Positions 21,303-56,356 of a DNA stretch of 64,000 nt are shown here, piece after piece. A model generated the notes under the pieces. That model worked only from the letters and a program-made list of their open reading frames with translations, had not been told where the DNA came from and ran no database searches. The position numbers were made by a program, and so were the translations under genes. Numbering within the stretch: the stretch's first letter is position 1; the number at the start of each line of letters is the position of its first letter. This DNA is from Myxococcales bacterium. Its GTDB lineage: Bacteria; Myxococcota; UBA727; VGSZ01. Where the stretch lies: positions 8,419 through 72,418 of the forward strand of contig JAHFED010000014.1 of NCBI GenBank assembly GCA_023248635.1. Direction: 5' to 3'.

Positions 21303-23009
21303 TCAGAACGTCTTCAGCAACTCCAAGACGTCGGCCTTCTCCGCCTCGCTCATGGCATCGAAAGGCACCACGTGGCCCACGTTCGTACGGCCCGGCGACG
21401 TGGCGTCGTAGACCGCGGGCAACATCCAGGGAACGTAGTCGGGAGGAAAGCGCCACATGCCGTCGTCGTCGACGAAGCCCTTGATCCCGACCTTGTCGAA
21501 GTCGAGGGCATGGCCGCCTTGCTGAAAGCGGCGGGGTCGCGTGTCGGGATGCATGAGATGCCACAAGGTTGGCACCGAACCATTGTGCAGATAGGGGGCG
21601 GTGGCCCAGATGCCACTCAAGGTCGGGGCCACGTAGCCGCCGCGCGGCGCCGCATCGATGGCCGCGCCGACCGGGTAGTCGATCAAGTGCTCGAGCAGCT
21701 TTGCGGTCGCCGCATTGGCGCGCGCAGGGTCGGTGCCGATCTCCTCGAGCGATGACAGATGATTGGGGAATTCGACGACGTGGCTGCGTTGGCCCACCAA
21801 TTCGATGCTGCCGTGGCACGCCTGACAGCGCGCCGTCCACACACTCAGGCCACGCCGAGCTGCATCGATAGCGACCACGCCAGGAAAAGGCGGCGTGTCG
21901 GCGTCGGCGAAGAAGGCCATGACTTCACGCACGGCGGGCAGGTTTTCCTGGGCGGTCTTTGGAGCAACGCCAAGGGTGCTCACCGTGAAGAGCGTGCCAA
22001 TGGCGCCCACCTCTTGGGCGTGCGCGAGGCGATCGGGAGCGTCTCGGCGGTGGGGCGTGAAGGGCGCGTGTCCCTTGGGCGCATAGATGCCGTCGCACAA
22101 CAAGCTGCTGCGCACCTGCACCGAGATGACGTCGGGGATCTGGGTGAAGGCGATTTCGGCGGGGCCCAGCGTGGGGTTCAGCAGCCCGAAGTGGTTCTTG
22201 ATGTGGCCGACGGCGTTGCTGAGACCAGGGCCGCCGTTGTCGAAAGGCACCGGCTCAGCCGGGGCGTCGACGCCGCCGATGCGATGCAGAAACGCCGGCA
22301 ACATGATGTCGATGATCGTGCCGCGCTCGACGGGATCGAGTTGGGGGTAGATGCGGTCGAGCATCGCCACCACCGGTTGCGGGTCCCGCGCCGCCGCCTG
22401 GAGCGCCGCATAGACCTCGCTCGAATAGCGTCCAAGGTCGATCGACGTCGACGGCAACCCCAGCCAGACGTCGTGGGTCGGCAAGCCGCGCGCGTCCCAC
22501 AAGTTGCTGGCATGGCAGGTGGCGCAGCCGTGGTTGTTGGCCTCAAAGCGCACACGCGGAACCGCGCGGCGAATGTCGCCGCTGATGACGCCCAGGTTGC
22601 GCGACAGCGCGGGCGACGACGCCCCCGGCCAGTTGGCCACCGCGGACGCCCGGACGAAGCCATAGCGTTGCTCCAGCAGCGTCAGCCATCCTTCTTCCGA
22701 TGGCGCCACCTCGCCACCATCGAGGTGCGGCGCCGCCACCCCGTCGTGGCGGGTGAACATCGCCGCCACCGTCAGCTTCCAGGGCAACGCGTTGGTCTGC
22801 AGGGCATCGGTGTTGAGACTGCGAAAATCATCGAAGAGAAAACGTGCGGCGCCGAGCTCGCGGGCATCGGCAGGCGGGTGTTGTCCCCACCACGACAGCA
22901 ACGTCGACGACGGACCCTCGGCGTAGCCCCGCAGAAAGTCGCAGCCGGGGCCGAGCACCAACGTGCCCAGGAGCAACGCCGCGCGGATCACCAGAAAACT
23001 GCGATTCAT
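21303..23009 (-). CDS. Di-haem cytochrome c peroxidase (CCP/MauG) family lipoprotein
   Basis: Two CxxCH motifs (CATCH, CQACH). 'APTLSGIWATAPYLHNGSVPTLWHLM' (CCP signature). Lipoprotein signal 'LLGTLVLGPGC'. The start overlaps the upstream gene in an ATGA. Confidence 0.7.
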   Translation of the reverse strand: MNRSFLVIRAALLLGTLVLGPGCDFLRGYAEGPSSTLLSWWGQHPPADARELGAARFLFDDFRSLNTDALQTNALPWKLTVAAMFTRHDGVAAPHLDGGEVAPSEEGWLTLLEQRYGFVRASAVANWPGASSPALSRNLGVISGDIRRAVPRVRFEANNHGCATCHASNLWDARGLPTHDVWLGLPSTSIDLGRYSSEVYAALQAAARDPQPVVAMLDRIYPQLDPVERGTIIDIMLPAFLHRIGGVDAPAEPVPFDNGGPGLSNAVGHIKNHFGLLNPTLGPAEIAFTQIPDVISVQVRSSLLCDGIYAPKGHAPFTPHRRDAPDRLAHAQEVGAIGTLFTVSTLGVAPKTAQENLPAVREVMAFFADADTPPFPGVVAIDAARRGLSVWTARCQACHGSIELVGQRSHVVEFPNHLSSLEEIGTDPARANAATAKLLEHLIDYPVGAAIDAAPRGGYVAPTLSGIWATAPYLHNGSVPTLWHLMHPDTRPRRFQQGGHALDFDKVGIKGFVDDDGMWRFPPDYVPWMLPAVYDATSPGRTNVGHVVPFDAMSEAEKADVLELLKTF

Positions 23010-25045
23010 GAGATGACCTTTTCAAAGAGAGCCAGGCGATGAAGTTTCATGAGACCAGCCAGTTTCGCCTGCTTCAAACTAGGCTTGTTGGTATCACTGA
23101 TCCAGGTTCCGCCGACTTCGGTGTAGCCACCGTCCTGCAGTGCTTTCATCAGATCGTGGTTCAGCACGCCGATGACGCCCTGCCCGTGGTATTCCCGGCG
23201 CACCAGCATGATGATGACACTGGCGCGCCGCAGCCGTCGTCGACCCCACAAGAATGTCAGCAAAGACAACGGCGTGATGCGGCTCTTCATCCGGCGCAGC
23301 AGCGGGTTGGGATCGGGGATACAGATCGTCACGCCAATGGGCTGGCCATTGTGTTCAGCAATGCGCGTAAGAGCTGGATCCATGACGGTCTTCATAGAAC
23401 CCATCTGAAAGCGGGCTTCATCAGCTGTCATCGGCACAAATAGCGGATTCTTATCCATCGAATCATTGAGCAGCTGCCGGACGATTTCGATGTCGTCGTC
23501 GTAGCGCTTCATGTTGAACGTGCGCCACGTGTAGCTCGGGTCGGCGAGCAGGGCGCGGTGCTTGTCGGTGACCATGGTGTTCAGGTCCATGCTGGCGAGG
23601 TCGCGTTTGATGAAGGTCGTCATCGGCATCGACGCCGTGTAGCCCAGCTCTCCCAGCAGGCGGCCAATGTGACGGGGCTGGAACATCTGGGCCACGAAGG
23701 GCTGCAGCTCCTCGCCCTCGGTGAGGGCACCGATCTCCTGGTTGGCGGTGAGGTTCATGTTGCCGCGCATCAGGTTGCAGCCATGGGCGCGGGCAAAGGC
23801 CTCGGCCTTGTCGAGCAGCGCCTGTGCGACCTCTTTGTCGTCGGCGCAGTCGAAGAAGCCGAAGCTGGCCGCCTTTTCCCCGAAGCGCTCGTTGGCCGCG
23901 TGGTGCACGTGGGCGACGATGCGCCCGGCGGGCACGCCGTTTCGGAGCGCCGTGAAATAGGTCCCTTCGGCCCGTTGCCAGTGCGGGTTCTTGCGCTCGT
24001 CCAACAAGGCCTCGAGGTCGCCGCGCATCATTGAGACCCAGGGAATCTCGCGGGGGTAGACATGAAAGGGCACTTCGAAGAAGGAGGCGAAGTCGCGCTC
24101 CCGCAGCTCCAGGGTCGGCGCAGCCGTGGACGCCGCCGCCGTCGACGACGACTGATGGCCTGGGGTCGCGTTGATGTCGTTCAGGAAGCGGCGAACGAAG
24201 AAGCGCCGCACGGCGGCCACGGGCCAGCTCTTGTTGCGCTCGGCCTGCCCCGTCCAGGGATTGAAGAACACCCCACCGGGACCCGGGCCGCCCGACTTGC
24301 GCAACACCACGCGCACAGCCTCGTAGGCCATGAGGCAGCCCGTCATCCACACCATCGGCGCGAAGCTGATGCGCTTGCGTTTGCCAGTGATCATCTCGGC
24401 GGCGCGCGCCATCACCACATGATCGGCCGTCGACGATTGCGTCATGACCCACTCGATCTCTTTGCGGGCGCAGCCTCTCACGACGTCGTCGTCGAGCCGA
24501 TCGAGAGCCAATCGGGCCGAGGGATAGTCGAAGAGTTGCTCGGGCCGTGGATCGCCGGGACGCACGACGTAGACATTGGGCAGCGTGGACGCGAAGGCGT
24601 CGATGACGGTCTTGCCCAGGTCCCGGGCCTTGCGCATCAGCGCGATGGTGGCCCGCACGTCGTCGCAGCCATTGATGACGACGTCGACGCGGCCGAGGAT
24701 CTCCTCCAGCTGGCCGGGCCAGGTGTGACCATGGTGAACGATGACCTCGCAGGTCGGGTTGATGCGCTCGATCGCCGACTTCGTGGCCGCCGTCTTTTCG
24801 ACGCCGACTGTGTCGAGGTTCGCGAAGATCTGGCGGTTGAGATTCGAGACTTCAAAGACGTCCATGTCGGCGATTTCGACGTGGCCGACGCCGCAGCGCA
24901 CCAAGCAAGCAACGGCGGCGCCGCCCATGCCGCCAACGCCGGCGACGAAGACACGCGCGCCGCGCAAACGCTGCTGTTCTTCTTCGGTGATGAAACCGAT
25001 GTTGCGCGTGGTGAAGTCGCCGTAGTCAAAGGGAACCGTGCTCAT
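23006..25045 (-). CDS. ThiF/MoeB E1-like adenylyltransferase fused to a C-terminal tandem GNAT-like acyltransferase module
   Basis: N-terminal 'VFVAGVGGMGGAAVACLVRCGVGHVEIADMDVFEVSNLNRQ' (E1 nucleotide-binding motif). A Ser/Ala linker follows. C-terminal about 360 aa includes 'RREYHGQGVIGVL' (GNAT R/Q-xx-G-x-G/A-like motif). Confidence 0.65.
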   Translation of the reverse strand: MSTVPFDYGDFTTRNIGFITEEEQQRLRGARVFVAGVGGMGGAAVACLVRCGVGHVEIADMDVFEVSNLNRQIFANLDTVGVEKTAATKSAIERINPTCEVIVHHGHTWPGQLEEILGRVDVVINGCDDVRATIALMRKARDLGKTVIDAFASTLPNVYVVRPGDPRPEQLFDYPSARLALDRLDDDVVRGCARKEIEWVMTQSSTADHVVMARAAEMITGKRKRISFAPMVWMTGCLMAYEAVRVVLRKSGGPGPGGVFFNPWTGQAERNKSWPVAAVRRFFVRRFLNDINATPGHQSSSTAAASTAAPTLELRERDFASFFEVPFHVYPREIPWVSMMRGDLEALLDERKNPHWQRAEGTYFTALRNGVPAGRIVAHVHHAANERFGEKAASFGFFDCADDKEVAQALLDKAEAFARAHGCNLMRGNMNLTANQEIGALTEGEELQPFVAQMFQPRHIGRLLGELGYTASMPMTTFIKRDLASMDLNTMVTDKHRALLADPSYTWRTFNMKRYDDDIEIVRQLLNDSMDKNPLFVPMTADEARFQMGSMKTVMDPALTRIAEHNGQPIGVTICIPDPNPLLRRMKSRITPLSLLTFLWGRRRLRRASVIIMLVRREYHGQGVIGVLNHDLMKALQDGGYTEVGGTWISDTNKPSLKQAKLAGLMKLHRLALFEKVIS

Positions 25046-36357: not shown

Positions 36358-38391
36358 TCAGCCGCCGCCGGGCAAGCCAGACGTCGTCAAATCGGGATCG
36401 CTGGTCGGGCTGCGCTCGAAGACGACCTGCTTCAGGCTCCCTGTCCCTCGACGAGAGAGCAGCTCCTGCTGCACCAGGCCCGACTGCACATTGTAATGCC
36501 AGTAGCCGATGGATTTTCCAAACCCGCCTTTGATGCCCGATAACGTCTGTAACACCAGGCTTTTTTCATCGAATGGCAGCGCAAGCACATTCTTTTTGTA
36601 CTGCTCGGTCCAGGGCCAACACTCGGGAGCATTGCTCGGATAGTAGATGCGAATGGTTACACCCATCGCCCGCGCGGCAGCACCAATCCCCTGCATAGAA
36701 TCTTTAGCGAGCATGTCACCCTTCAAGATGTGAATGCGACCCTGCTGAAAGAGCGTACGGATGTATTGATACGCCGGCTCGGTTCCCAACCAGCCAAAGG
36801 AGGGATCTTCGGATTGGTCGCCGACCTTGACCCCCGCTTTTCGCACGGGGGCGTCGGCAGCGGCGGTGGGCGCCTTGACGATATCGGGGACGCTGACTTC
36901 GCCGTCGGCCTGGTGTTCATAATATTGCAAAAGGCTGGCGCGGCTGACGCTGTAGAGCTCGCGGAAGGCAGCGAGCTCGGGGTCTGCTTTGTAGGTCTCG
37001 GCCAAGACGGCGAGCACGCGATCCTTGGCTTCGGGGCGGAAGTGATCGATGAAGGCCTTGCGGTCGGCGGCGTCGACGATCACCGCGCGCAGCACCTTGT
37101 GCAGCCGCACAACGGTCGGGTCGTAGTCAAAGAGCCAGGCCCAATCCGAGTGCGCGTGGGCGATGAATGAGTAGTTCTGATCGATGCCGACGCCGACGTA
37201 GCCGCCGCCGATGTTGTCGACGTAGGGACGCCAAACGTGTTGGCGCGGCTCGTTCGATTTAATATAGTGATTCGGATCTCTGCAGTCTATAAAACTCCGA
37301 CCTTTTTCGGCACAGACTTGCTTCGCCAGTACGTCTTCTTTGATCGAGGTCGCGAGCTTCAACTGCTGGGCCGAAGGCGGCGTCGGCGCCGGCGGCACCG
37401 GGCGCTTCTCGGTGAGCACGCGGGGCGGTGAGGTGGTCAGCGTCGTCGACGTCGACGCGCAGCGCACGCTGAGGCGGTGGTGGCTGGTGAGCAACACTTC
37501 GCCGCGGCGGAAGAAGGGTGTGGCTTGGTTTTTCGGCCAGTACCAGGAGCCACCCTTGAGCACTTTGCGCACGTCCTGGCCGGTGCAGGGGTAGTTGCCG
37601 TCGCAGGGGCCGCGGGGATCGCGGCCGTTGCAGCGAGGTCCGCAGGATCCGGTCCCGGAAGCGCGGGTGTCTGCGAGGAACCACGTCGACGTCCACTCGA
37701 AGCCGTTGCCGGCCATGTCGAAGATGCCGTAGTGGCCGGCCGGGTAGCTGCCGACGGGCTTGGTGGCGTGCTCGACGCAGTCCCACTCCTCTTTCTTGCC
37801 GGGATAGGGCTTGCAGCCTTTGGGGGCGCAGTCGCGCACTTGGGCTTTGTCACAGCTGAAGGGATCGTTGCCCCAGGGCCAGGCGTCGCCGTTGGGACCG
37901 CGGGCGGCTTTCTCCCACTCCCACTCGGTGGGCAGGCGCTTGCCGGCCCAGACGCAGAAGGCTTGGGCACGGGGCCAATCCAGCGGCATGGCGGGGTTGT
38001 CGGGGCCCACGAAGGGCTGCATGATTTTCTCGTTGAAGCTCGGGATGTCGAGGGCGGTGCAGGCTTTGGCGGCGACGCACTCCTGGTAGGCGGCCTGGGT
38101 GACCTCTTTTTGATCGATGTAGAAAGTCGAGAGCTCGACCACGCGTTTGGGCGAGCCTTTTTCGCTGTCGTCGCCGACGATGGCGGGCCCCCCTGGCACG
38201 CAGCTCATGCCCGCCGGCGCCTTGGCACAAGCCGCAAAGCCCGCCGCCGCCGCGGTCTCTGACTGCTTGGGCAGCGTCTTCCAGTCTGACGCGGTCCCGC
38301 TGTTGCTGTCGGGGGCGGTGGCCGATCCTGTGGTGATCGGAGTCGCAGTGGCAGTGAGGGCGAAGGTGAGGGCGACGACGACGAAACGCAT
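36358..38391 (-). CDS. Secreted FGE-sulfatase (SUMF1/formylglycine-generating-enzyme fold) domain protein with an extra C-terminal domain
   Basis: 'WPRAQAFCVWAGKRLPTEWEWEKAARG...GIFDMAGNGFEWTSTWF...RKVLKGGSWYW'. Confidence 0.75.
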   Translation of the reverse strand: MRFVVVALTFALTATATPITTGSATAPDSNSGTASDWKTLPKQSETAAAAGFAACAKAPAGMSCVPGGPAIVGDDSEKGSPKRVVELSTFYIDQKEVTQAAYQECVAAKACTALDIPSFNEKIMQPFVGPDNPAMPLDWPRAQAFCVWAGKRLPTEWEWEKAARGPNGDAWPWGNDPFSCDKAQVRDCAPKGCKPYPGKKEEWDCVEHATKPVGSYPAGHYGIFDMAGNGFEWTSTWFLADTRASGTGSCGPRCNGRDPRGPCDGNYPCTGQDVRKVLKGGSWYWPKNQATPFFRRGEVLLTSHHRLSVRCASTSTTLTTSPPRVLTEKRPVPPAPTPPSAQQLKLATSIKEDVLAKQVCAEKGRSFIDCRDPNHYIKSNEPRQHVWRPYVDNIGGGYVGVGIDQNYSFIAHAHSDWAWLFDYDPTVVRLHKVLRAVIVDAADRKAFIDHFRPEAKDRVLAVLAETYKADPELAAFRELYSVSRASLLQYYEHQADGEVSVPDIVKAPTAAADAPVRKAGVKVGDQSEDPSFGWLGTEPAYQYIRTLFQQGRIHILKGDMLAKDSMQGIGAAARAMGVTIRIYYPSNAPECWPWTEQYKKNVLALPFDEKSLVLQTLSGIKGGFGKSIGYWHYNVQSGLVQQELLSRRGTGSLKQVVFERSPTSDPDLTTSGLPGGG

Positions 38392-50292: not shown

Positions 50293-52377
50293 ATGACGAC
50301 GACGAGCGCGGAAAAGACTGCTGCCCCGGCCCCCGCCAAGCCCGAGGCACCTGCCCCAGCGCCGTCGCCAGCGCCGCCTTCGGACGTCGTGACCCTCACC
50401 ATCGATGGCCAAAAACTGACGGTGAAGAAGGGCACTCTCCTCGTCGAAGCCGCCAAGCAGCTGCAGCAGGACATTCCGGTTTTTTGCTACCACCCCAAGC
50501 TCAAGCCCGTCGGCGCCTGCCGCATGTGTCTGGTCGAGATCGAAAAGATGCCGCGTCTGCAGACGGCCTGCACCACGCCCGTCGCCGAAGGCATGGTGGT
50601 CAAGACCAAGAGCGAGGCGGCGACCGGCGGCCAAAACGCCGTCATCTCGATGCTGCTCGCCAACCATCCCCTCGATTGCCCTGTCTGCGACAAGGGCGGC
50701 GAGTGTCCGCTGCAAGACAATACATTTGCACACGGTGTCGGCGTCTCCAAATTTCAGGAAGAAAAGCGTCACAAAGACAAAGCGTTCGAGCTGTCGTCGA
50801 AGATCGTGCTCGATCGCGAGCGCTGCATCCTCTGCTACCGCTGTGTGCGCTTCCACGACGAAGTCCCGGGGGATCGGGCCTTGGCGGTCATCGATCGGGG
50901 CAGCCGCGGCGAGATCGGGGTGCTCGACGGGGAGGCCTACACTTCACCCTTTCAGGGCAACACCATTGACATTTGTCCGGTCGGGGCTCTGACGAGTCGC
51001 CAATATCGTTTCCGCTCGCGCCCCTGGGACCTCAAGCAAACCCGCAGCATCGCCGCCGACGACCCTGTGGGCAGCAACGTCTGGGTCGACACCCGCGATG
51101 GGCGCGTGCTGCGTCTGCGGCCCCGCGAAAACGCCGACATCAACGGCGCGTGGATCGGCGATGGCACCCGCTTCGACACCATCCCCGTGGAGCGCTCCGA
51201 GCGCTTGGGCACGCCGTTGGTGCGAAAGACCGTCGGCGGCAAACTCGAGCCGTCGACGTGGTTCGAGGCCCTGCGCAAGGCCGGCGCGATGATGCGCAAC
51301 CACAAGGTCGGCGCCCTGGTGTCACCGGCCTTGTCCAACGAGGCCCTCGCCGTCGTGGCCCACGCCCATCCCACCGCCAACGTGTGGCCTCAGCTCAGCG
51401 CCTGGCCCGTGCAAGGCACCCTAAAAAACCTGGGAGCCTCCAAGGCCGTCGTCGTCGTCGGCTGCGATCCTTTTGTAGATCTGCCGATGCTCGCCCTGTG
51501 GATCCGCAAGGCCCTCGTGCCCACCACCGACTGCGGCATCACCCGCGGCGGCGGCGAGGGCAACCTGGTCGTCGTCGGCGCTGAAAACGGCTTGTTCAGA
51601 GATACCGCGGTGTGGCTCAAGGCCTCGCCTGCAGAGACTGTGGCCCAGCTCGAAGACCTCGTCGCCGCCCTCGAAGGCAAGGGATGCGAGCAAGCCAAGA
51701 AGGCAGCGTCGTCGTTGTCGGCGCGTCCGGCTTCGATCGTCGCTGGTCCCGCGGTGGCGTCGACGGCAGCGGGGCTGGCGGCGCTGCAGAAGTTGGCGAC
51801 CTTGCTGGGCTGCACGCCCGAGAGCTCGTTTTTTGGCGCCGTCGACCCCTGGGCCAACGCCCGCGGTGCGCGCACCATCCTCGCCGAAGCAGGCCGGCCC
51901 GACGATGCCTGGCTCAGCGGCGACCACCGGTCCAACGGCGTCGTCCACCACGTCCTGGTGGGCCTCCTCGACGTACTCGTAGTGGCCGGAGACGTACCTG
52001 GTCATTCGGGCTTCCCCGTGACCGAGCCCGCCGACGAGGTACGGGCCATCTGGCTCACAGGCAGCCTCCCGAAAGACGGCGGCGGCGTCCCTGACGTCGT
52101 CGATGTGGTCTTGCCCCTGGCCTCGAGCTACGAGCAGGGCGGCAGCTTCACCAACCTCGAGGGTGTGCACCAAGGCTTCGACGCCGCCGGCATTCCTCCA
52201 GGTGACAAGGAAAGGGCCAAGGCCGACTTCGAAGTCCTCGCCCTCTTGGCCACCGAGCTCGGCAACAGCCTGCCCAAAGACCTCAAGGGCCTGCGGGCGG
52301 TGTTTGCGGCGCAGCACGCGTTTGCCAGAATCCCTCAAAACCGCAATTCGGCGCGTGCGGAGTTAAATGTTGTCTGA
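50293..52377 (+). CDS. nuoG: NADH-quinone oxidoreductase subunit G (NuoG, 75-kDa-subunit-like)
   Basis: ATG at 50293. 2Fe-2S 'CYHPKLKPVGACRMC'. 4Fe-4S 'CPVCDKGGECPLQD' and 'CILCYRCVRF'. 'ICPVGALT'. Confidence 0.8.
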   Translation: MTTTSAEKTAAPAPAKPEAPAPAPSPAPPSDVVTLTIDGQKLTVKKGTLLVEAAKQLQQDIPVFCYHPKLKPVGACRMCLVEIEKMPRLQTACTTPVAEGMVVKTKSEAATGGQNAVISMLLANHPLDCPVCDKGGECPLQDNTFAHGVGVSKFQEEKRHKDKAFELSSKIVLDRERCILCYRCVRFHDEVPGDRALAVIDRGSRGEIGVLDGEAYTSPFQGNTIDICPVGALTSRQYRFRSRPWDLKQTRSIAADDPVGSNVWVDTRDGRVLRLRPRENADINGAWIGDGTRFDTIPVERSERLGTPLVRKTVGGKLEPSTWFEALRKAGAMMRNHKVGALVSPALSNEALAVVAHAHPTANVWPQLSAWPVQGTLKNLGASKAVVVVGCDPFVDLPMLALWIRKALVPTTDCGITRGGGEGNLVVVGAENGLFRDTAVWLKASPAETVAQLEDLVAALEGKGCEQAKKAASSLSARPASIVAGPAVASTAAGLAALQKLATLLGCTPESSFFGAVDPWANARGARTILAEAGRPDDAWLSGDHRSNGVVHHVLVGLLDVLVVAGDVPGHSGFPVTEPADEVRAIWLTGSLPKDGGGVPDVVDVVLPLASSYEQGGSFTNLEGVHQGFDAAGIPPGDKERAKADFEVLALLATELGNSLPKDLKGLRAVFAAQHAFARIPQNRNSARAELNVV

Positions 52378-53428
52378 CCTGAATGCAACGCTAAGTCAGT
52401 ACACTGTTTTCGGCTGGACCCTGCCGAACATCGTCTACCTCGTCGTGTTGTGCCTGGTGGTGTGCCTGGGCGGCATGGGAGGCATGGCGGCCGGCACCTG
52501 GTTCGAGCGTCGCTTCATCGCCCTGCTGCAGGTGCGCAAGGGGCCGAACCGTGTCGGACCCCTGGGGCTCTTCCAGCCCGTCGCCGACGGCATCAAGACT
52601 TTCTTCAAAGAAGATCTAATCCCCGCCACCGCCGACCGGCCTCTCAACCGCCTCGCCCCGGGCATCGCCCTCTTCGCCGCGCTCATGAGCCTGTGCGTGC
52701 TGCCCTTTGGACCCTCCTACGACATCGAAGGCTGGGGCAAGCTCACTTTGTATGTTTCCGACCTGAACGTCGGCGTCTTGTTTCTCTTGGGTGTGGGATC
52801 TCTGCATGTCTACGGCGTCATCTTGGCCGGCTGGTCGAGCGGCAATAAGTATAGCCTATTGGGCGCCCTGCGGGGAGCAGCCCAGCTGGTGTCCTACGAG
52901 ATCGTGCTGGGCATGAGCCTGGTCGGTGTCGTGATGATCACCGGTGAGATGAGCCTGGGCGGCATCGTGCGCTGGCAACACGAGCACCATCTGCCGCTGG
53001 TGCTGCTGCAGCCCATCGCCTTCGGCCTCTTTTTCGTCTGCATGTTCGCCGAGACCAACCGCCCGCCCTTTGACCTCGTCGAAGCAGACACCGAGCTCGT
53101 GGCGGGGTTTCACACCGAGTACTCGGGCTTTCGCTACGCCTTGTTCATGATCTCCGAGTACGTCGCGATGATCACGGTCTCGGTGGTTGCGACGTCGCTG
53201 TTCTTCGGCGGCTGGGGCGGACCGTTCGGCTTGTTGCCCGGCATCTGGTGGACCTTCATCGGCATCGCTTTCTTCTTCTTCATGTTCGTCTGGGTGCGGG
53301 CCACCATCCCCCGCCTTCGTTATGACCAGCTCATGAGGCTCTCTTGGAGCTACCTCATCCCCATCGGACTGGTGAACCTCGCCCTCACCGCTGTCGCTGT
53401 TGTCGCCTTCGGCGGCGACAAACCGTGA
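52367..53428 (+). CDS. nuoH: NADH-quinone oxidoreductase subunit H (NuoH)
   Basis: 'GWSSGNKYSLLGALRGAAQLVSYEI...FAETNRPPFDLVEADTELVAGFHTEYSG'. It overlaps the nuoG end. Confidence 0.85.
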   Translation: MLSDLNATLSQYTVFGWTLPNIVYLVVLCLVVCLGGMGGMAAGTWFERRFIALLQVRKGPNRVGPLGLFQPVADGIKTFFKEDLIPATADRPLNRLAPGIALFAALMSLCVLPFGPSYDIEGWGKLTLYVSDLNVGVLFLLGVGSLHVYGVILAGWSSGNKYSLLGALRGAAQLVSYEIVLGMSLVGVVMITGEMSLGGIVRWQHEHHLPLVLLQPIAFGLFFVCMFAETNRPPFDLVEADTELVAGFHTEYSGFRYALFMISEYVAMITVSVVATSLFFGGWGGPFGLLPGIWWTFIGIAFFFFMFVWVRATIPRLRYDQLMRLSWSYLIPIGLVNLALTAVAVVAFGGDKP

Positions 53429-53436
53429 GGTCGCAG

Positions 53437-54155
53437 TGACCGCCACCGCCGCCCCCGCCTCGACCAAGCCCCGCATCTTGATCGTCGAAGACGACGCCGC
53501 CATCGCTGCCGGCCTGCGGCTCAACCTCAAGCACGAGGGCTACGTCGTCAGCGTCGAGCACGATGGCGAGACGGGCTTGAAGCGCGCCCTCGACGACGTC
53601 CCCGATCTGGTGGTGCTCGACGTCATGTTGCCCACCATGAACGGCTTCGAGATCTTGCGTGAGCTGCGCCGGCGCGGGTCGACGTCGGGCGTGATCCTGC
53701 TGACCGCCAAAGGCCTAGAAGAAGACAAAGTCATGGGCCTCGACCTCGGCGCCGACGACTACGTGCAAAAGCCCTTCGGCCTCAGCGAGCTGATTGCTCG
53801 CATCAACGCCGTGCTGCGTCGTCGACAGGCCCAGCAGCCCTCGCTCGTGCTCTTCTCCGACGTCCGGGTCGATCGGCGCGCCCGCACCGTGACCCGCGCC
53901 GATCAGCTGGTGTCGCTGTCGCCGCGCGAGATGTCGCTCCTGCTCTACCTCATCGATCACCCCGGCCGCGCCCATACCCGCGATGCCCTGCTCGAGGGAG
54001 CCTGGGGCCTCGACTACGAAGGCACCGAGCGCACTGTCGACAACTTCGTCGTCTCTCTGCGCAAGAAGCTCGAGGTCAACCCCGACGAGCCTCAGCATTT
54101 CGTCACCGTCCGCGGCGTCGGCTACCGCTTCGATCCCCTGCCTGCCAGAGGCTGA
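53437..54155 (+). CDS. OmpR-family response regulator (REC plus winged-helix)
   Basis: 'RILIVEDDAAIAAGLRLNL...LVVLDVMLPTMNGFEILRELRR...ILLTAKGLEEDKVMGLDLGADDYVQKPF'. C-terminal '...VRGVGYRFDP'. A GTG start lies 9 nt after the nuoH stop. Confidence 0.8.
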
Positions 54156-54188: not shown

Positions 54189-54644
54189 TCAGTGCCGAAC
54201 CAAACGAATGCCAAACTCGGCGCGAATCTGAGCCAGCGGAATATTCATATACTGATCATGTTCATGAAAAGGCCATTTCTTCGACATGCGGAAAACGCGC
54301 CAAAGAACAGTGATCAAGCGAGGCACCGCCCGCACGGTGGCGGCGATCACGGATCCGAAACCAACCTCCAGAAAAACCGCCCTGGTTTCGGGCAACTGGG
54401 TGTAGCGCAGGTACTCTCGGAACGGGACGTCGGTACCGAACATCTGCCAGGTGTCGGCCAGCGGCTCGCCGTTCAAGGTGGTGTCGCAGCCGAAGACCAC
54501 ATGGCCCACGTCGTGCTTGAGCATGAGCGCGGCTACTTCTTTTGATGCGTTGGCCTCGGTGAGTAGGCCTGGAATGGATGCAAAATATTCGGTAAGCCCC
54601 TCTTTCAGAGTTTGTTGAGTATCTTGATCCAGATAACGCAACAT
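54189..54644 (-). CDS. Coq4-like protein (ubiquinone biosynthesis COQ4 family core, 151 aa)
   Basis: 'SKEVAALMLKHDVGHVVFGCDTTLNGE' matches the COQ4 HDxxH-x11-E zinc motif and its flanks. The 3' part of the gene is AT-richer than its surroundings. Confidence 0.5.
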   Translation of the reverse strand: MLRYLDQDTQQTLKEGLTEYFASIPGLLTEANASKEVAALMLKHDVGHVVFGCDTTLNGEPLADTWQMFGTDVPFREYLRYTQLPETRAVFLEVGFGSVIAATVRAVPRLITVLWRVFRMSKKWPFHEHDQYMNIPLAQIRAEFGIRLVRH

Positions 54645-54742: not shown

Positions 54743-55321
54743 ATGGCCCGTCTGTTGTGCATCTGTGGCAAGCGCTTCGCCGGCAAAGACACCTTCGCAG
54801 CGCTGCTGAAAGAACAGGCCCGGGCTCGCGGCGTCGTCCTCGAGCTGTACGCTTTCGCCGGCGAGAGCAAGCGGCTGTTCGCGCAACAAGAGAAAGCCCG
54901 CGGCGTCGACGTCGAACTCCACCGGCTGCTGCACGATCGGGCCTACAAAGAGGGGCTGCGGCCCCAGCTCACGCGCTTCACCGTCGACGCCATCGACCGA
55001 GATCCTCTGGTGTTTTGCCGCGCCGTCGCCGATCGCATTGCCGCCGCCGACGACGCCGTCGCTGTGGTCACCGATTTGCGCCTCATCCTCGAGGTTGAGC
55101 ACCTGCGGACGCGCTTCGGCTTGGTGGTGGTGCGCTTGCGACGCTCGGACCAAGACCGGGCCGCCAGCGGATGGCGTTTCGATGCCGCCATCGACGGCCA
55201 CCACACTGAAACCGAGCTCGATGATCCCAAGTGGTGGACAGCGGTCGTCGACAACGACGGCAGCGTTGAAGCGCTGGCTCCCCGAGCCGCCGAGCTGCTC
55301 GACGCCGTGCTGGTGCGATGA
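54743..55321 (+). CDS. Animal-type phosphomevalonate kinase (PMVK, P-loop)
   Basis: ATG at 54743. 'LLCICGKRFAGKDTF' (compare metazoan 'LLFSGKRKSGKDF'). 'LLHDRAYKEGLR', 'DPLVFCRAVADR', 'VVTDLRLILEVEHLRTRFGLVVVRLRRSDQDRAASGWRF' align block-by-block with metazoan PMVK. Confidence 0.7.
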   Translation: MARLLCICGKRFAGKDTFAALLKEQARARGVVLELYAFAGESKRLFAQQEKARGVDVELHRLLHDRAYKEGLRPQLTRFTVDAIDRDPLVFCRAVADRIAAADDAVAVVTDLRLILEVEHLRTRFGLVVVRLRRSDQDRAASGWRFDAAIDGHHTETELDDPKWWTAVVDNDGSVEALAPRAAELLDAVLVR

Positions 55322-55387: not shown

Positions 55388-56356
55388 TCAAAAAATCCGC
55401 GGCCACACCGGCAGGGCGGCAAGCCCGCTGGCGTCTTCGAAGGTACAATCCAGCCGCAAGAGGGGGAGGTCGGGGAGAAAGCCTTTGACGTGCTTGAGAT
55501 CGGCGACGCCCTCGGTGACAAAAAAACCCAACTCCGACGACGCCGACCAAGCCTTCAGGTGAATCTCCTTGAAGGCCGGCGTCGAAGGTCCGTCCTTGGG
55601 CTTGCAGACCAGATCCTTGGGGTCGACGTCGAGCCCGGCTTTTTTCAGGCCCAGCATGGTGTCGTCGTGGAAGCTCTCCCAGCGTCCGGTGAGAAACTTC
55701 ACCGTGGCGCCGGCGGCCTGGGAGCGCTTCACCAGATCGACCATCTCTTGCATCGGCACGTCGTGGGCCAGGTTGGCGGGGGTCCAAAACGATTGCTCCC
55801 AGAAAGCAGCGAAGGCCTCGACGACGGCGCCGGGCAACCTCAGCTTGGTCGCGGTGGAACGTCCGTCGACGGCGATGTCAGCGAGGTCGCGGCCGGCGAA
55901 GTAACTCGTTCCGTTGGCGGCGTCGAAGGCGCGAGCGGCGTGCAGGGTGCGTCCACGGGTGTCAAAGACCGTGTTGTCCAGGTCGAAGACGACGGTCACC
56001 GGCATCTTGATCTTCTTGGTGAGCTGCTCGATCTCCTGGAGTCGTGCCGCCACCCACTTGCGTCCATCGATGGGTGGACGCACGCGCGCGCTGGCGATGT
56101 TCAGGACTGGCAGGTCGGATCGCGGGGGCGCGCGGCGGCTGATCTCTGCGCCCGACGGGACCCAGTTGGCATCGAGAGCTCGCGTTCGGAGCGCCGGCTG
56201 CTCGTTGGCCGCGGACCCGATCGCAACACCCGTCGTCGCCGGCGTGGGTTTCGGGCCTGGAGCAGCGGGCCCTGTCCCGCCCGTTTTTTGACCAGCGGTT
56301 TTCAACGTCGACGAAGGCCCTTCCGGCGTCGGTTTCAGCGGGGTCTTGAGGTCCAC
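55388..56356 (-). CDS. HAD-superfamily phosphatase (class-B acid phosphatase-like). The N-terminal Pro-rich extension is uncertain; an alternative ATG lies at 56005.
   Basis: 'MPVTVVFDLDNTVFDT' (DxDxT motif I). The GTG at 56356 lies 9 nt after the meaB stop. Confidence 0.55.
   Translation of the reverse strand: MDLKTPLKPTPEGPSSTLKTAGQKTGGTGPAAPGPKPTPATTGVAIGSAANEQPALRTRALDANWVPSGAEISRRAPPRSDLPVLNIASARVRPPIDGRKWVAARLQEIEQLTKKIKMPVTVVFDLDNTVFDTRGRTLHAARAFDAANGTSYFAGRDLADIAVDGRSTATKLRLPGAVVEAFAAFWEQSFWTPANLAHDVPMQEMVDLVKRSQAAGATVKFLTGRWESFHDDTMLGLKKAGLDVDPKDLVCKPKDGPSTPAFKEIHLKAWSASSELGFFVTEGVADLKHVKGFLPDLPLLRLDCTFEDASGLAALPVWPRIF

Follow-up and report, generated by a model that had tools for sequence, protein, structure and literature searches.

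Phosphomevalonate kinases (PMVKs) of the animal type are P-loop enzymes with a fold like that of nucleoside monophosphate (NMP) kinases and a GKRxxGKD loop, and structures are available for the human (3CH4) and silkworm (7XND) proteins. The human-type enzyme is described as largely restricted to animals (review PMC13412983), and we found no paper discussing bacterial members of the corresponding Pfam family, PF04275 (P-mevalo_kinase). The same fold, with a GxKRxGKD-type P-loop, occurs in the deoxynucleoside monophosphate (dNMP) kinases of phages and giant viruses (T4 gp1 type). Here we describe a PMVK-fold P-loop kinase, equal in length to the animal enzymes at 192 amino acids, encoded in 64,000 nucleotides of DNA from a Myxococcales bacterium (GenBank assembly GCA_023248635.1, contig JAHFED010000014.1, positions 8,419 to 72,418), a stretch that we refer to as the window. 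Homology to the animal P-loop PMVK is genuine and spans the whole protein, and the fold is the same. Function as a PMVK is not supported, and a kinase acting on another substrate is the most likely explanation.

Family membership and predicted fold

A sequence-only reading of this DNA had proposed an animal-type PMVK in a bacterium, citing a GKRxxGKDF loop and block-by-block likeness to the metazoan enzyme. The likeness is full length and far above chance. A phmmer search of PDB sequences aligned residues 4–187 of the window protein, well beyond the P-loop, with human PMVK (3CH4, E = 8.1e-14), and also retrieved silkworm PMVK (7XND, E = 8.1e-12). The match to the Pfam family P-mevalo_kinase was significant, at 56.9 bits against a gathering cutoff of 33.8, and covered residues 7–125. 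The loop itself differs slightly from its first description, as the N-terminal sequence is CGKRFAGKDTF, in which GKRxxGKD is followed by T and then F, not directly by F.

The predicted structure gave the same picture. An AlphaFold2 model made with 56 family members as input was confident (predicted local distance difference test, pLDDT, 96.9; predicted template modeling score, pTM, 0.90). The two top-ranked Foldseek matches in the PDB were 7XND and 3CH4 (E ~1e-10), with a template modeling (TM) score of 0.76–0.77 and a root-mean-square deviation of 2.9 to 3CH4, and these PMVK matches led adenylate-kinase-like and dephospho-CoA kinases by three to four orders of magnitude. Pfam, phmmer, the model, and Foldseek all place the fold with the animal P-loop PMVK, unlike the GHMP/ERG8 fold, and on this point the earlier proposal holds.

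Profile scores placed the protein at some distance from the animal enzymes, to which it is ~24% identical. The NCBIfam equivalog TIGR01223 (Pmev_kin_anim) scored 69.2 bits, well under its cutoff of 188.15 and on par with the phage dNMP kinase family phrog_139, which matched over full length at 68.8 bits. PF21448 (DNMK) reached 28.5 bits against a cutoff of 27.1, covering residues 81–178 only, and PMVK profiles scored equal to or better than dNMP-kinase profiles. In the BFVD library of viral structures, a giant-virus “PMVK” topped the list, and dozens of dNMP kinases from phages and giant viruses came next, with E values from 1e-11 to 1e-8. The protein belongs to a PMVK/dNMP-kinase continuum, outside the animal PMVK group.

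Active-site residues

We compared 120 homologs with human PMVK in one alignment (positions of the main blocks in Table 1). The human sequence was checked at residues 11–186 by alignment with 3CH4 and by its ~90% identity to mammalian PMVKs. At the replaced sites discussed below, the alignment is ungapped and anchored by the invariant D87-P88, F91-C92-R93, D108-x-R110, and R138...G142-W143. The P-loop and phosphoryl-transfer residues were invariant in all homologs, namely K10, R11, K15, D16, K43, R73, R113, R131, and R139, whose human counterparts are K17, R18, K22, D23, K48, R73, R110, R130, and R138. Further matches to human PMVK are D87-P88, F91, R93, D151, E156, L159-D160, and N171 (window-protein numbering). 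In human numbering, the features held in common with the animal enzyme include K48, Y68-K69-E70, R73, D108, R110, R130, R138, G142-W143, D150, E155, and D159.

Four human residues are replaced. R111 is L in 120 of 120 homologs, R84 is I or L, R141 is S or A (S142 in the window protein), and K19 is F or Y (F12). The clade also has invariant residues of its own, R66, R98, R134, and H153, with R134 standing where the human protein has A133. In the human enzyme, K48, R73, and R110 reportedly affect catalysis, R84 and R111 are said to affect the Km for mevalonate-5-phosphate, and R141 reportedly affects ATP binding. A role of R141 in ATP binding is also described in PMC4823745. Judged from the alignment, phosphoryl-transfer chemistry would be kept, and the known substrate-recognition residues are lost.

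The wider superfamily

Relatives with the PF04275 fold were numerous in a profile search of 1.84 billion cluster representatives, with 3,778 at E ≤ 1e-3 and 511 at E ≤ 1e-10. Among 140 full-length representatives, 19 kept R111. These carriers include arthropod PMVKs (P0262, P0340) and four proteins in which the PF04275 domain is fused to diphosphomevalonate decarboxylase (MDD; P0360, P0365, P0375, and P0378), one of which, P0360, also has a GHMP N-terminal domain. R111 was present in all animal-type members and in all four MDD-fused members. The MDD–PMVK fusions tie the domain directly to the mevalonate pathway. R84, R111, and R141 are retained in every one of the four, in contrast to the window clade. 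Like the window clade, they have F or Y in place of human K19 and R where the human protein has S66. In a neighbor-joining tree (rough, star-like, and without support values), they form a separate clade, and the myxobacterial proteins group apart from both them and the animal clade. Across the superfamily, the anticorrelation between R66 and R111 was weak (Fisher p = 0.06). We note that the MDD–PMVK fusions lie on short environmental contigs, are likely of protist origin, and are probably bifunctional enzymes.

Other PF04275 clades were joined to different partners. A 2-oxoglutarate-Fe(II) (2OG-Fe(II)) oxygenase was fused to the domain in P0286, P0334, P0337, and P0355 (one cluster member comes from a marine-protist transcriptome), and further partners were UDP-glycosyltransferase, PhyH plus methyltransferase, and DUF7768 (P0342; P0381; P0298, P0307). 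Since several fusion architectures occur, the Pfam “phosphomevalonate kinase” family is functionally heterogeneous. The nearest relative outside the myxobacterial clade, P0254 (locus L019, 10001–10591; JGI 3300000156, 44% GC), has the signature F19/R66/L111/H152. Its contig is eukaryote-like (Copine, MIX23, fragmented gene calls), and the adjoining DAO-family gene is unrelated to the flavoprotein described next.

A conserved gene module

In ~12 independent Polyangia loci, a convergent gene for a ~400-amino-acid flavoprotein and a gene for a ~224-amino-acid protein directly follow the kinase ortholog (L004, L005, L007/L020, L008, L009, L010, L011, L012, L013/L022, L018, and L021, plus the truncated L016 and the locus of P0002, a protein 75% identical to the window protein). 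Seven of the ~12 loci have a gene for a Ham1/ITPase-type nucleoside triphosphate (NTP) pyrophosphatase directly after the 224-amino-acid gene. Gene order and orientation are variable: most loci are divergent, in L009 and L021 the genes form a single operon on the minus strand, and the outermost neighbors are not the same from locus to locus. Because of this variation, we interpret the adjacency as maintained and not merely inherited. The window kinase is orthologous to the module kinases, with 54–75% identity and all clade invariants present.

The partner proteins give few clues to chemistry. The flavoprotein is a COG2509-type FAD protein whose sole full-length solved relative, VP0956 (3NLC), is uncharacterized, and we found no functional publications on VP0956. 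The 224-amino-acid protein has no Pfam family and no sequence relative in the PDB. Its structure model (pLDDT 92.9) predicts a tandem ferredoxin-like alpha+beta barrel that would resemble ABM-type monooxygenases, aldoxime dehydratase, and coproheme decarboxylase/Cld, at low TM-scores. One copy of this barrel protein (L005, 11747–12418, plus strand) matches the PADLOC “AbiEi” models PDLC02277 and PDLC02279 at 78.8 and 70.2 bits, respectively; it is without a Pfam AbiEi domain, and the PADLOC models may be mislabeled or derived from a neighboring gene family.

Mevalonate-pathway genes were absent from the window and from more than 20 related loci. No GHMP-kinase motif was present in the 64-kb window or 25 loci, and no isoprenoid enzymes were found among 20 window open reading frames (ORFs) scanned with Pfam or among Pfam-annotated genes flanking the kinase.

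The same three module proteins occur as a single polypeptide in a distant genome. P0301 (L026, 8001–10730; GCA_020049755.1) is a 909-amino-acid protein consisting of the flavoprotein (residues 3–430), the 224-amino-acid barrel protein (479–716), and a PF04275 kinase (720–903). The partner domains are 30–36% identical to the separate module proteins and match them with BLASTP E values of ~1e-27 each and profile E values of 1.4e-48 and 1.3e-34. The kinase domain has the F19/R66/L111 signature of the window clade; unlike that clade, it keeps R141 and falls in another clade of the tree. The contig resembles that of a giant virus, with 60% GC, four tandem ankyrin-repeat genes, RNA-ligase genes, and a 1588-amino-acid RNA-ligase/exonuclease/R3H/AAA_33 protein. 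An ADP-ribosylglycohydrolase–Ham1 fusion is encoded 6 kb downstream of P0301, so the Ham1 link recurs in a very distant genome. P0301 is the decisive item linking the kinase to its partners.

A genome related to that of the window shows how the kinase can become separated. In GCA_030685175.1, a single 1.42-Mb contig (JAUXRK010000039.1) carries the kinase (P0005, locus L003) at ~1.204 Mb and the flavoprotein and barrel pair (L023) at ~0.73 Mb, ~480 kb away, with no Ham1 gene beside the pair. Because the pair is intact on the same contig, we interpret the kinase gene as translocated, not orphaned. In this genome and in the window, the kinase sits downstream of nuoG/nuoH and a response-regulator gene, and the upstream nuoH/response-regulator synteny is common to both. 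The L003/L023 arrangement documents break-up of the module in the lineage of the window.

Distribution

A search of 5.8 billion proteins returned 153 relatives of ~190 amino acids with 54–75% identity. Those with names came from Polyangiaceae, Kofleriaceae, or “Deltaproteobacteria” metagenome-assembled genomes (MAGs) only. JGI pipelines label these relatives “phosphomevalonate kinase” and NCBI labels them hypothetical. A scan of 185,579 GTDB species-representative genomes for the near-invariant motifs of the clade found 12 loci, all in MAGs, assigned to Polyangiaceae, Kofleriaceae, Haliangiales, Myxococcota, and one “uncultured Nannocystis”; no cultured species among these representatives was a carrier. 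Assemblies with the gene include, besides that of the window, GCA_030685175.1, GCA_035762175.1, GCA_038321315.1, and GCA_942492725.1. The gene looks sporadic, not core, and since the 12 carriers are MAGs only, an accessory gene fits better than a core pathway enzyme. As far as seen, the orthologous group appears limited to uncultured Polyangia-type myxobacteria. A myxobacterial origin of the window gene is plausible, given that named homologs were all from Polyangiaceae, Kofleriaceae, Haliangiales, or Myxococcota MAGs.

Proposed function and alternatives

We favor, with a probability of roughly 60%, an active ATP-dependent phosphotransferase of the PMVK/dNMP-kinase superfamily (PF04275) that is the kinase part of an uncharacterized module and acts on a non-mevalonate acceptor. 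Mg-ATP would be bound by K10, R11, K15, and D16 of the P-loop, and in-line transfer of the gamma-phosphate would be stabilized by K43, R73, and three arginines of the lid (R113, R131, and R139). By analogy with PMVK and NMP kinases, the acceptor is probably a monophosphorylated, anionic small molecule converted from X-P to X-PP. Its binding site would be remodeled by I84, L114, S142, and F12 and by the new R66, R98, R134, and H153. Rather than mevalonate-5-phosphate, the acceptor would be a metabolite that the flavoprotein and barrel proteins, perhaps with Ham1, produce or consume. Non-canonical nucleotide-like monophosphates head the list of candidates, given the Ham1 linkage and the relationship to dNMP kinases. 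The analysis establishes homology, fold, retention of the catalytic residues, loss of the arginines that reportedly bind mevalonate phosphate, gene linkage, and fusion; catalytic activity, the X-P to X-PP chemistry, and the type of acceptor are inferred. We put at even odds the more specific proposal that kinase, flavoprotein, barrel protein, and Ham1 constitute a previously undescribed metabolic module, present in Polyangia and fused in a giant-virus-like genome, in which the PMVK-fold kinase acts on a non-mevalonate metabolite that is nucleotide-like and possibly redox-modified.

Several points weigh against a non-mevalonate module kinase. By both solved structure and Pfam family, the closest relatives are PMVKs and not nucleotide kinases, and the PMVK-typical Y-K-E...R block is intact. 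R84 and R111 reportedly bind mevalonate-5-phosphate in the human enzyme, and the new invariant arginines R66 and R134 might, in principle, re-create such a site. In the 64-kb window, tblastn and profile searches located no flavoprotein or barrel gene; the window genome connects to the module by orthology only, and we infer that the partners lie elsewhere in the genome. Where module genes do adjoin, the kinase is convergent to the flavoprotein gene and therefore not co-transcribed with it. With partner proteins that are themselves uncharacterized, the identity of the acceptor is conjectural. Finally, one weak homolog (L017) came from a Nannocystis MAG, and no obvious phosphomevalonate kinase (PMK) is reported in Nannocystis pusilla, though MVK and MDD are present (PMC10152446).

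The strongest alternative, which we nevertheless consider unlikely, is that the protein is a true phosphomevalonate kinase (EC 2.7.4.2) replacing the GHMP-type PMK, with R66, R134, and R98 substituting for R84, R111, and R141. Myxobacteria use the mevalonate pathway, the gap in N. pusilla would have room for such an enzyme, and JGI annotation already names these proteins as PMVKs; the PF04275 score above cutoff, the full-length human alignment, the best fold matches, the conserved counterparts of K48, R73, and R110, and the clade-specific arginines point the same way. Against it stand the TIGR01223 score far below cutoff and the loss of R84, R111, and R141 in 120 of 120 homologs, for which compensation by R66 finds little echo in the superfamily-wide anticorrelation. 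All four MDD–PMVK fusions, which have the pathway link, keep R84 and R111. The window clade is instead without mevalonate genes in more than 20 loci and linked or fused to unrelated oxidoreductase-type proteins and Ham1, and its 12 carrier species representatives are all MAGs, with no cultured mevalonate-using Polyangia detected. The equivalog score, the substrate residues, the gene context, and the contrast with the MDD fusions all oppose the view, taken from the sequence-only reading, that this protein serves the organism as its phosphomevalonate kinase.

Less probable again is a kinase of the phage T4 gp1 type that phosphorylates canonical (deoxy)nucleoside monophosphates. It would account for the full-length phrog_139 match, the PF21448 score just above cutoff, the many viral dNMP kinases among close fold matches in BFVD, and the nucleotide-sanitizing Ham1 that neighbors orthologous loci. 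However, the window gene is in a chromosomal, non-phage bacterial context, and bacteria already own dedicated NMP kinases. A tblastn search of 50,697 GenBank phage genomes gave no match, and IMG/VR yielded two partial, weak loci. The PMVK-specific blocks, including Y-K-E...R, are conserved, the PDB fold ranking puts PMVK first, and the flavoprotein and barrel protein have no obvious role in canonical nucleotide phosphorylation.

Somewhat more doubtful still is a kinase for a less polar isoprenoid monophosphate, such as isopentenyl, dimethylallyl, or prenyl phosphate. The changes of R84 to L or I and of R111 to L, with the phosphoryl-transfer machinery intact, could provide a hydrophobic pocket for a carboxylate-free substrate, and the relatedness to PMVK fits. 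No isoprenoid genes occur in any neighborhood, however, and the Ham1 linkage would be unexplained.

It is very improbable that the gene is a relic of a transferred eukaryotic PMVK, decaying or no longer catalytic: the score is under the equivalog cutoff and an atypical low-GC ORF adjoins, but GC content at third codon positions (GC3) is host-like at 0.80, the model is confident, synteny is conserved, and P-loop and catalytic residues are invariant in more than 120 orthologs at 54–75% identity, which together argue for strong purifying selection on an active enzyme.

Genomic context in the window

The kinase gene is monocistronic, with a divergent neighbor upstream and a convergent neighbor downstream (Table 1). 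Its GC3 matches that of other window genes and its codon usage is host-like, so we do not interpret it as a recent foreign insert. An identical protein (P0001) is present in public assemblies.

Table 1. Positions of the kinase gene, its main residue blocks, and its neighbors in the window (1 is the first nucleotide of the 64,000)
Feature	Position	Strand	Observation
nuoH-like gene	52367–53428	+	
OmpR-type response regulator gene	53400–54155	+	
ORF of 151 amino acids, divergent, outside the conserved module	54189–54644	-	GC 0.548 (rest of the window ~0.66); GC3 0.64
PMVK-fold P-loop kinase gene, 192 amino acids	54743–55321 (including stop codon)	+	ATG to TGA ORF
P-loop G9-K10-R11-F12-A13-G14-K15-D16	54767–54790	+	Human G16-K17-R18-K19-S20-G21-K22-D23; G, K, R, G, K, D invariant in 120 homologs
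K43	54869–54871	+	Human catalytic K48; invariant in 120/120
R66, then Y68-K69-E70...R73	54938–54961	+	R66 clade-specific invariant (human S66); following block common with PMVK
I84	54992–54994	+	Position of human R84; L or I in 120/120
D111-L112-R113-L114	55073–55084	+	D and R are human D108 and catalytic R110; L114 replaces R111
Lid R131...R134...R139...S142-G143-W144	55133–55174	+	R131 and R139 are human R130 and R138
HAD-IIIB-type phosphatase-like gene, 322 amino acids, convergent	55388–56356	-	PF03767, 34.4 bits

The divergent ORF upstream had no match in Pfam, NCBIfam, PHROGs, or PADLOC and was found elsewhere in contigs of the same organism only; it may have entered recently at the site to which the kinase gene was translocated. 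Downstream, the HAD gene takes the slot that the flavoprotein gene has in most relatives, and it is not beside the kinase in other lineages. The best PHROG match of its product was phrog_415 “polynucleotide kinase” (E = 6e-10), corresponding to the phosphatase part of phage enzymes. Genes across the window include efflux ABC/MacB, PALP, an ECF sigma factor, nuoG/H-like genes, a response regulator, MeaB, and a hydantoinase-like amidohydrolase. Separately, we observed two unusual domain combinations encoded on the minus strand of the window, FGE-sulfatase with DUF7790 (36358–38391, 677 amino acids) and ThiF with a GNAT acetyltransferase (23006–25045, 679 amino acids).

Implications for the family

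Environmental bacteria, protists, and viruses widely carry the PF04275 fold, as the 3,778 representatives illustrate, and a family-level match over-predicts function. The automatic name “phosphomevalonate kinase” is an over-annotation in this case, and, short of a biochemical test, the gene should be left out of the eukaryote-like mevalonate or isoprenoid enzymes of myxobacteria, among which it had been suggested to belong. Comparing MDD-fused members, which keep R84 and R111, with the window clade, which has lost both, provides a simple sequence rule that separates probable PMVKs from paralogous kinases.

The window protein appears to represent a new and distinct bacterial PF04275 subfamily, with altered specificity residues and a new conserved set of partners that is fused in one case. 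From the conserved gene linkage and the three-part fusion emerges a new, testable module that includes a kinase. If the module reading is true, animal PMVK would be one specialized branch of a large and mostly uncharacterized kinase superfamily.

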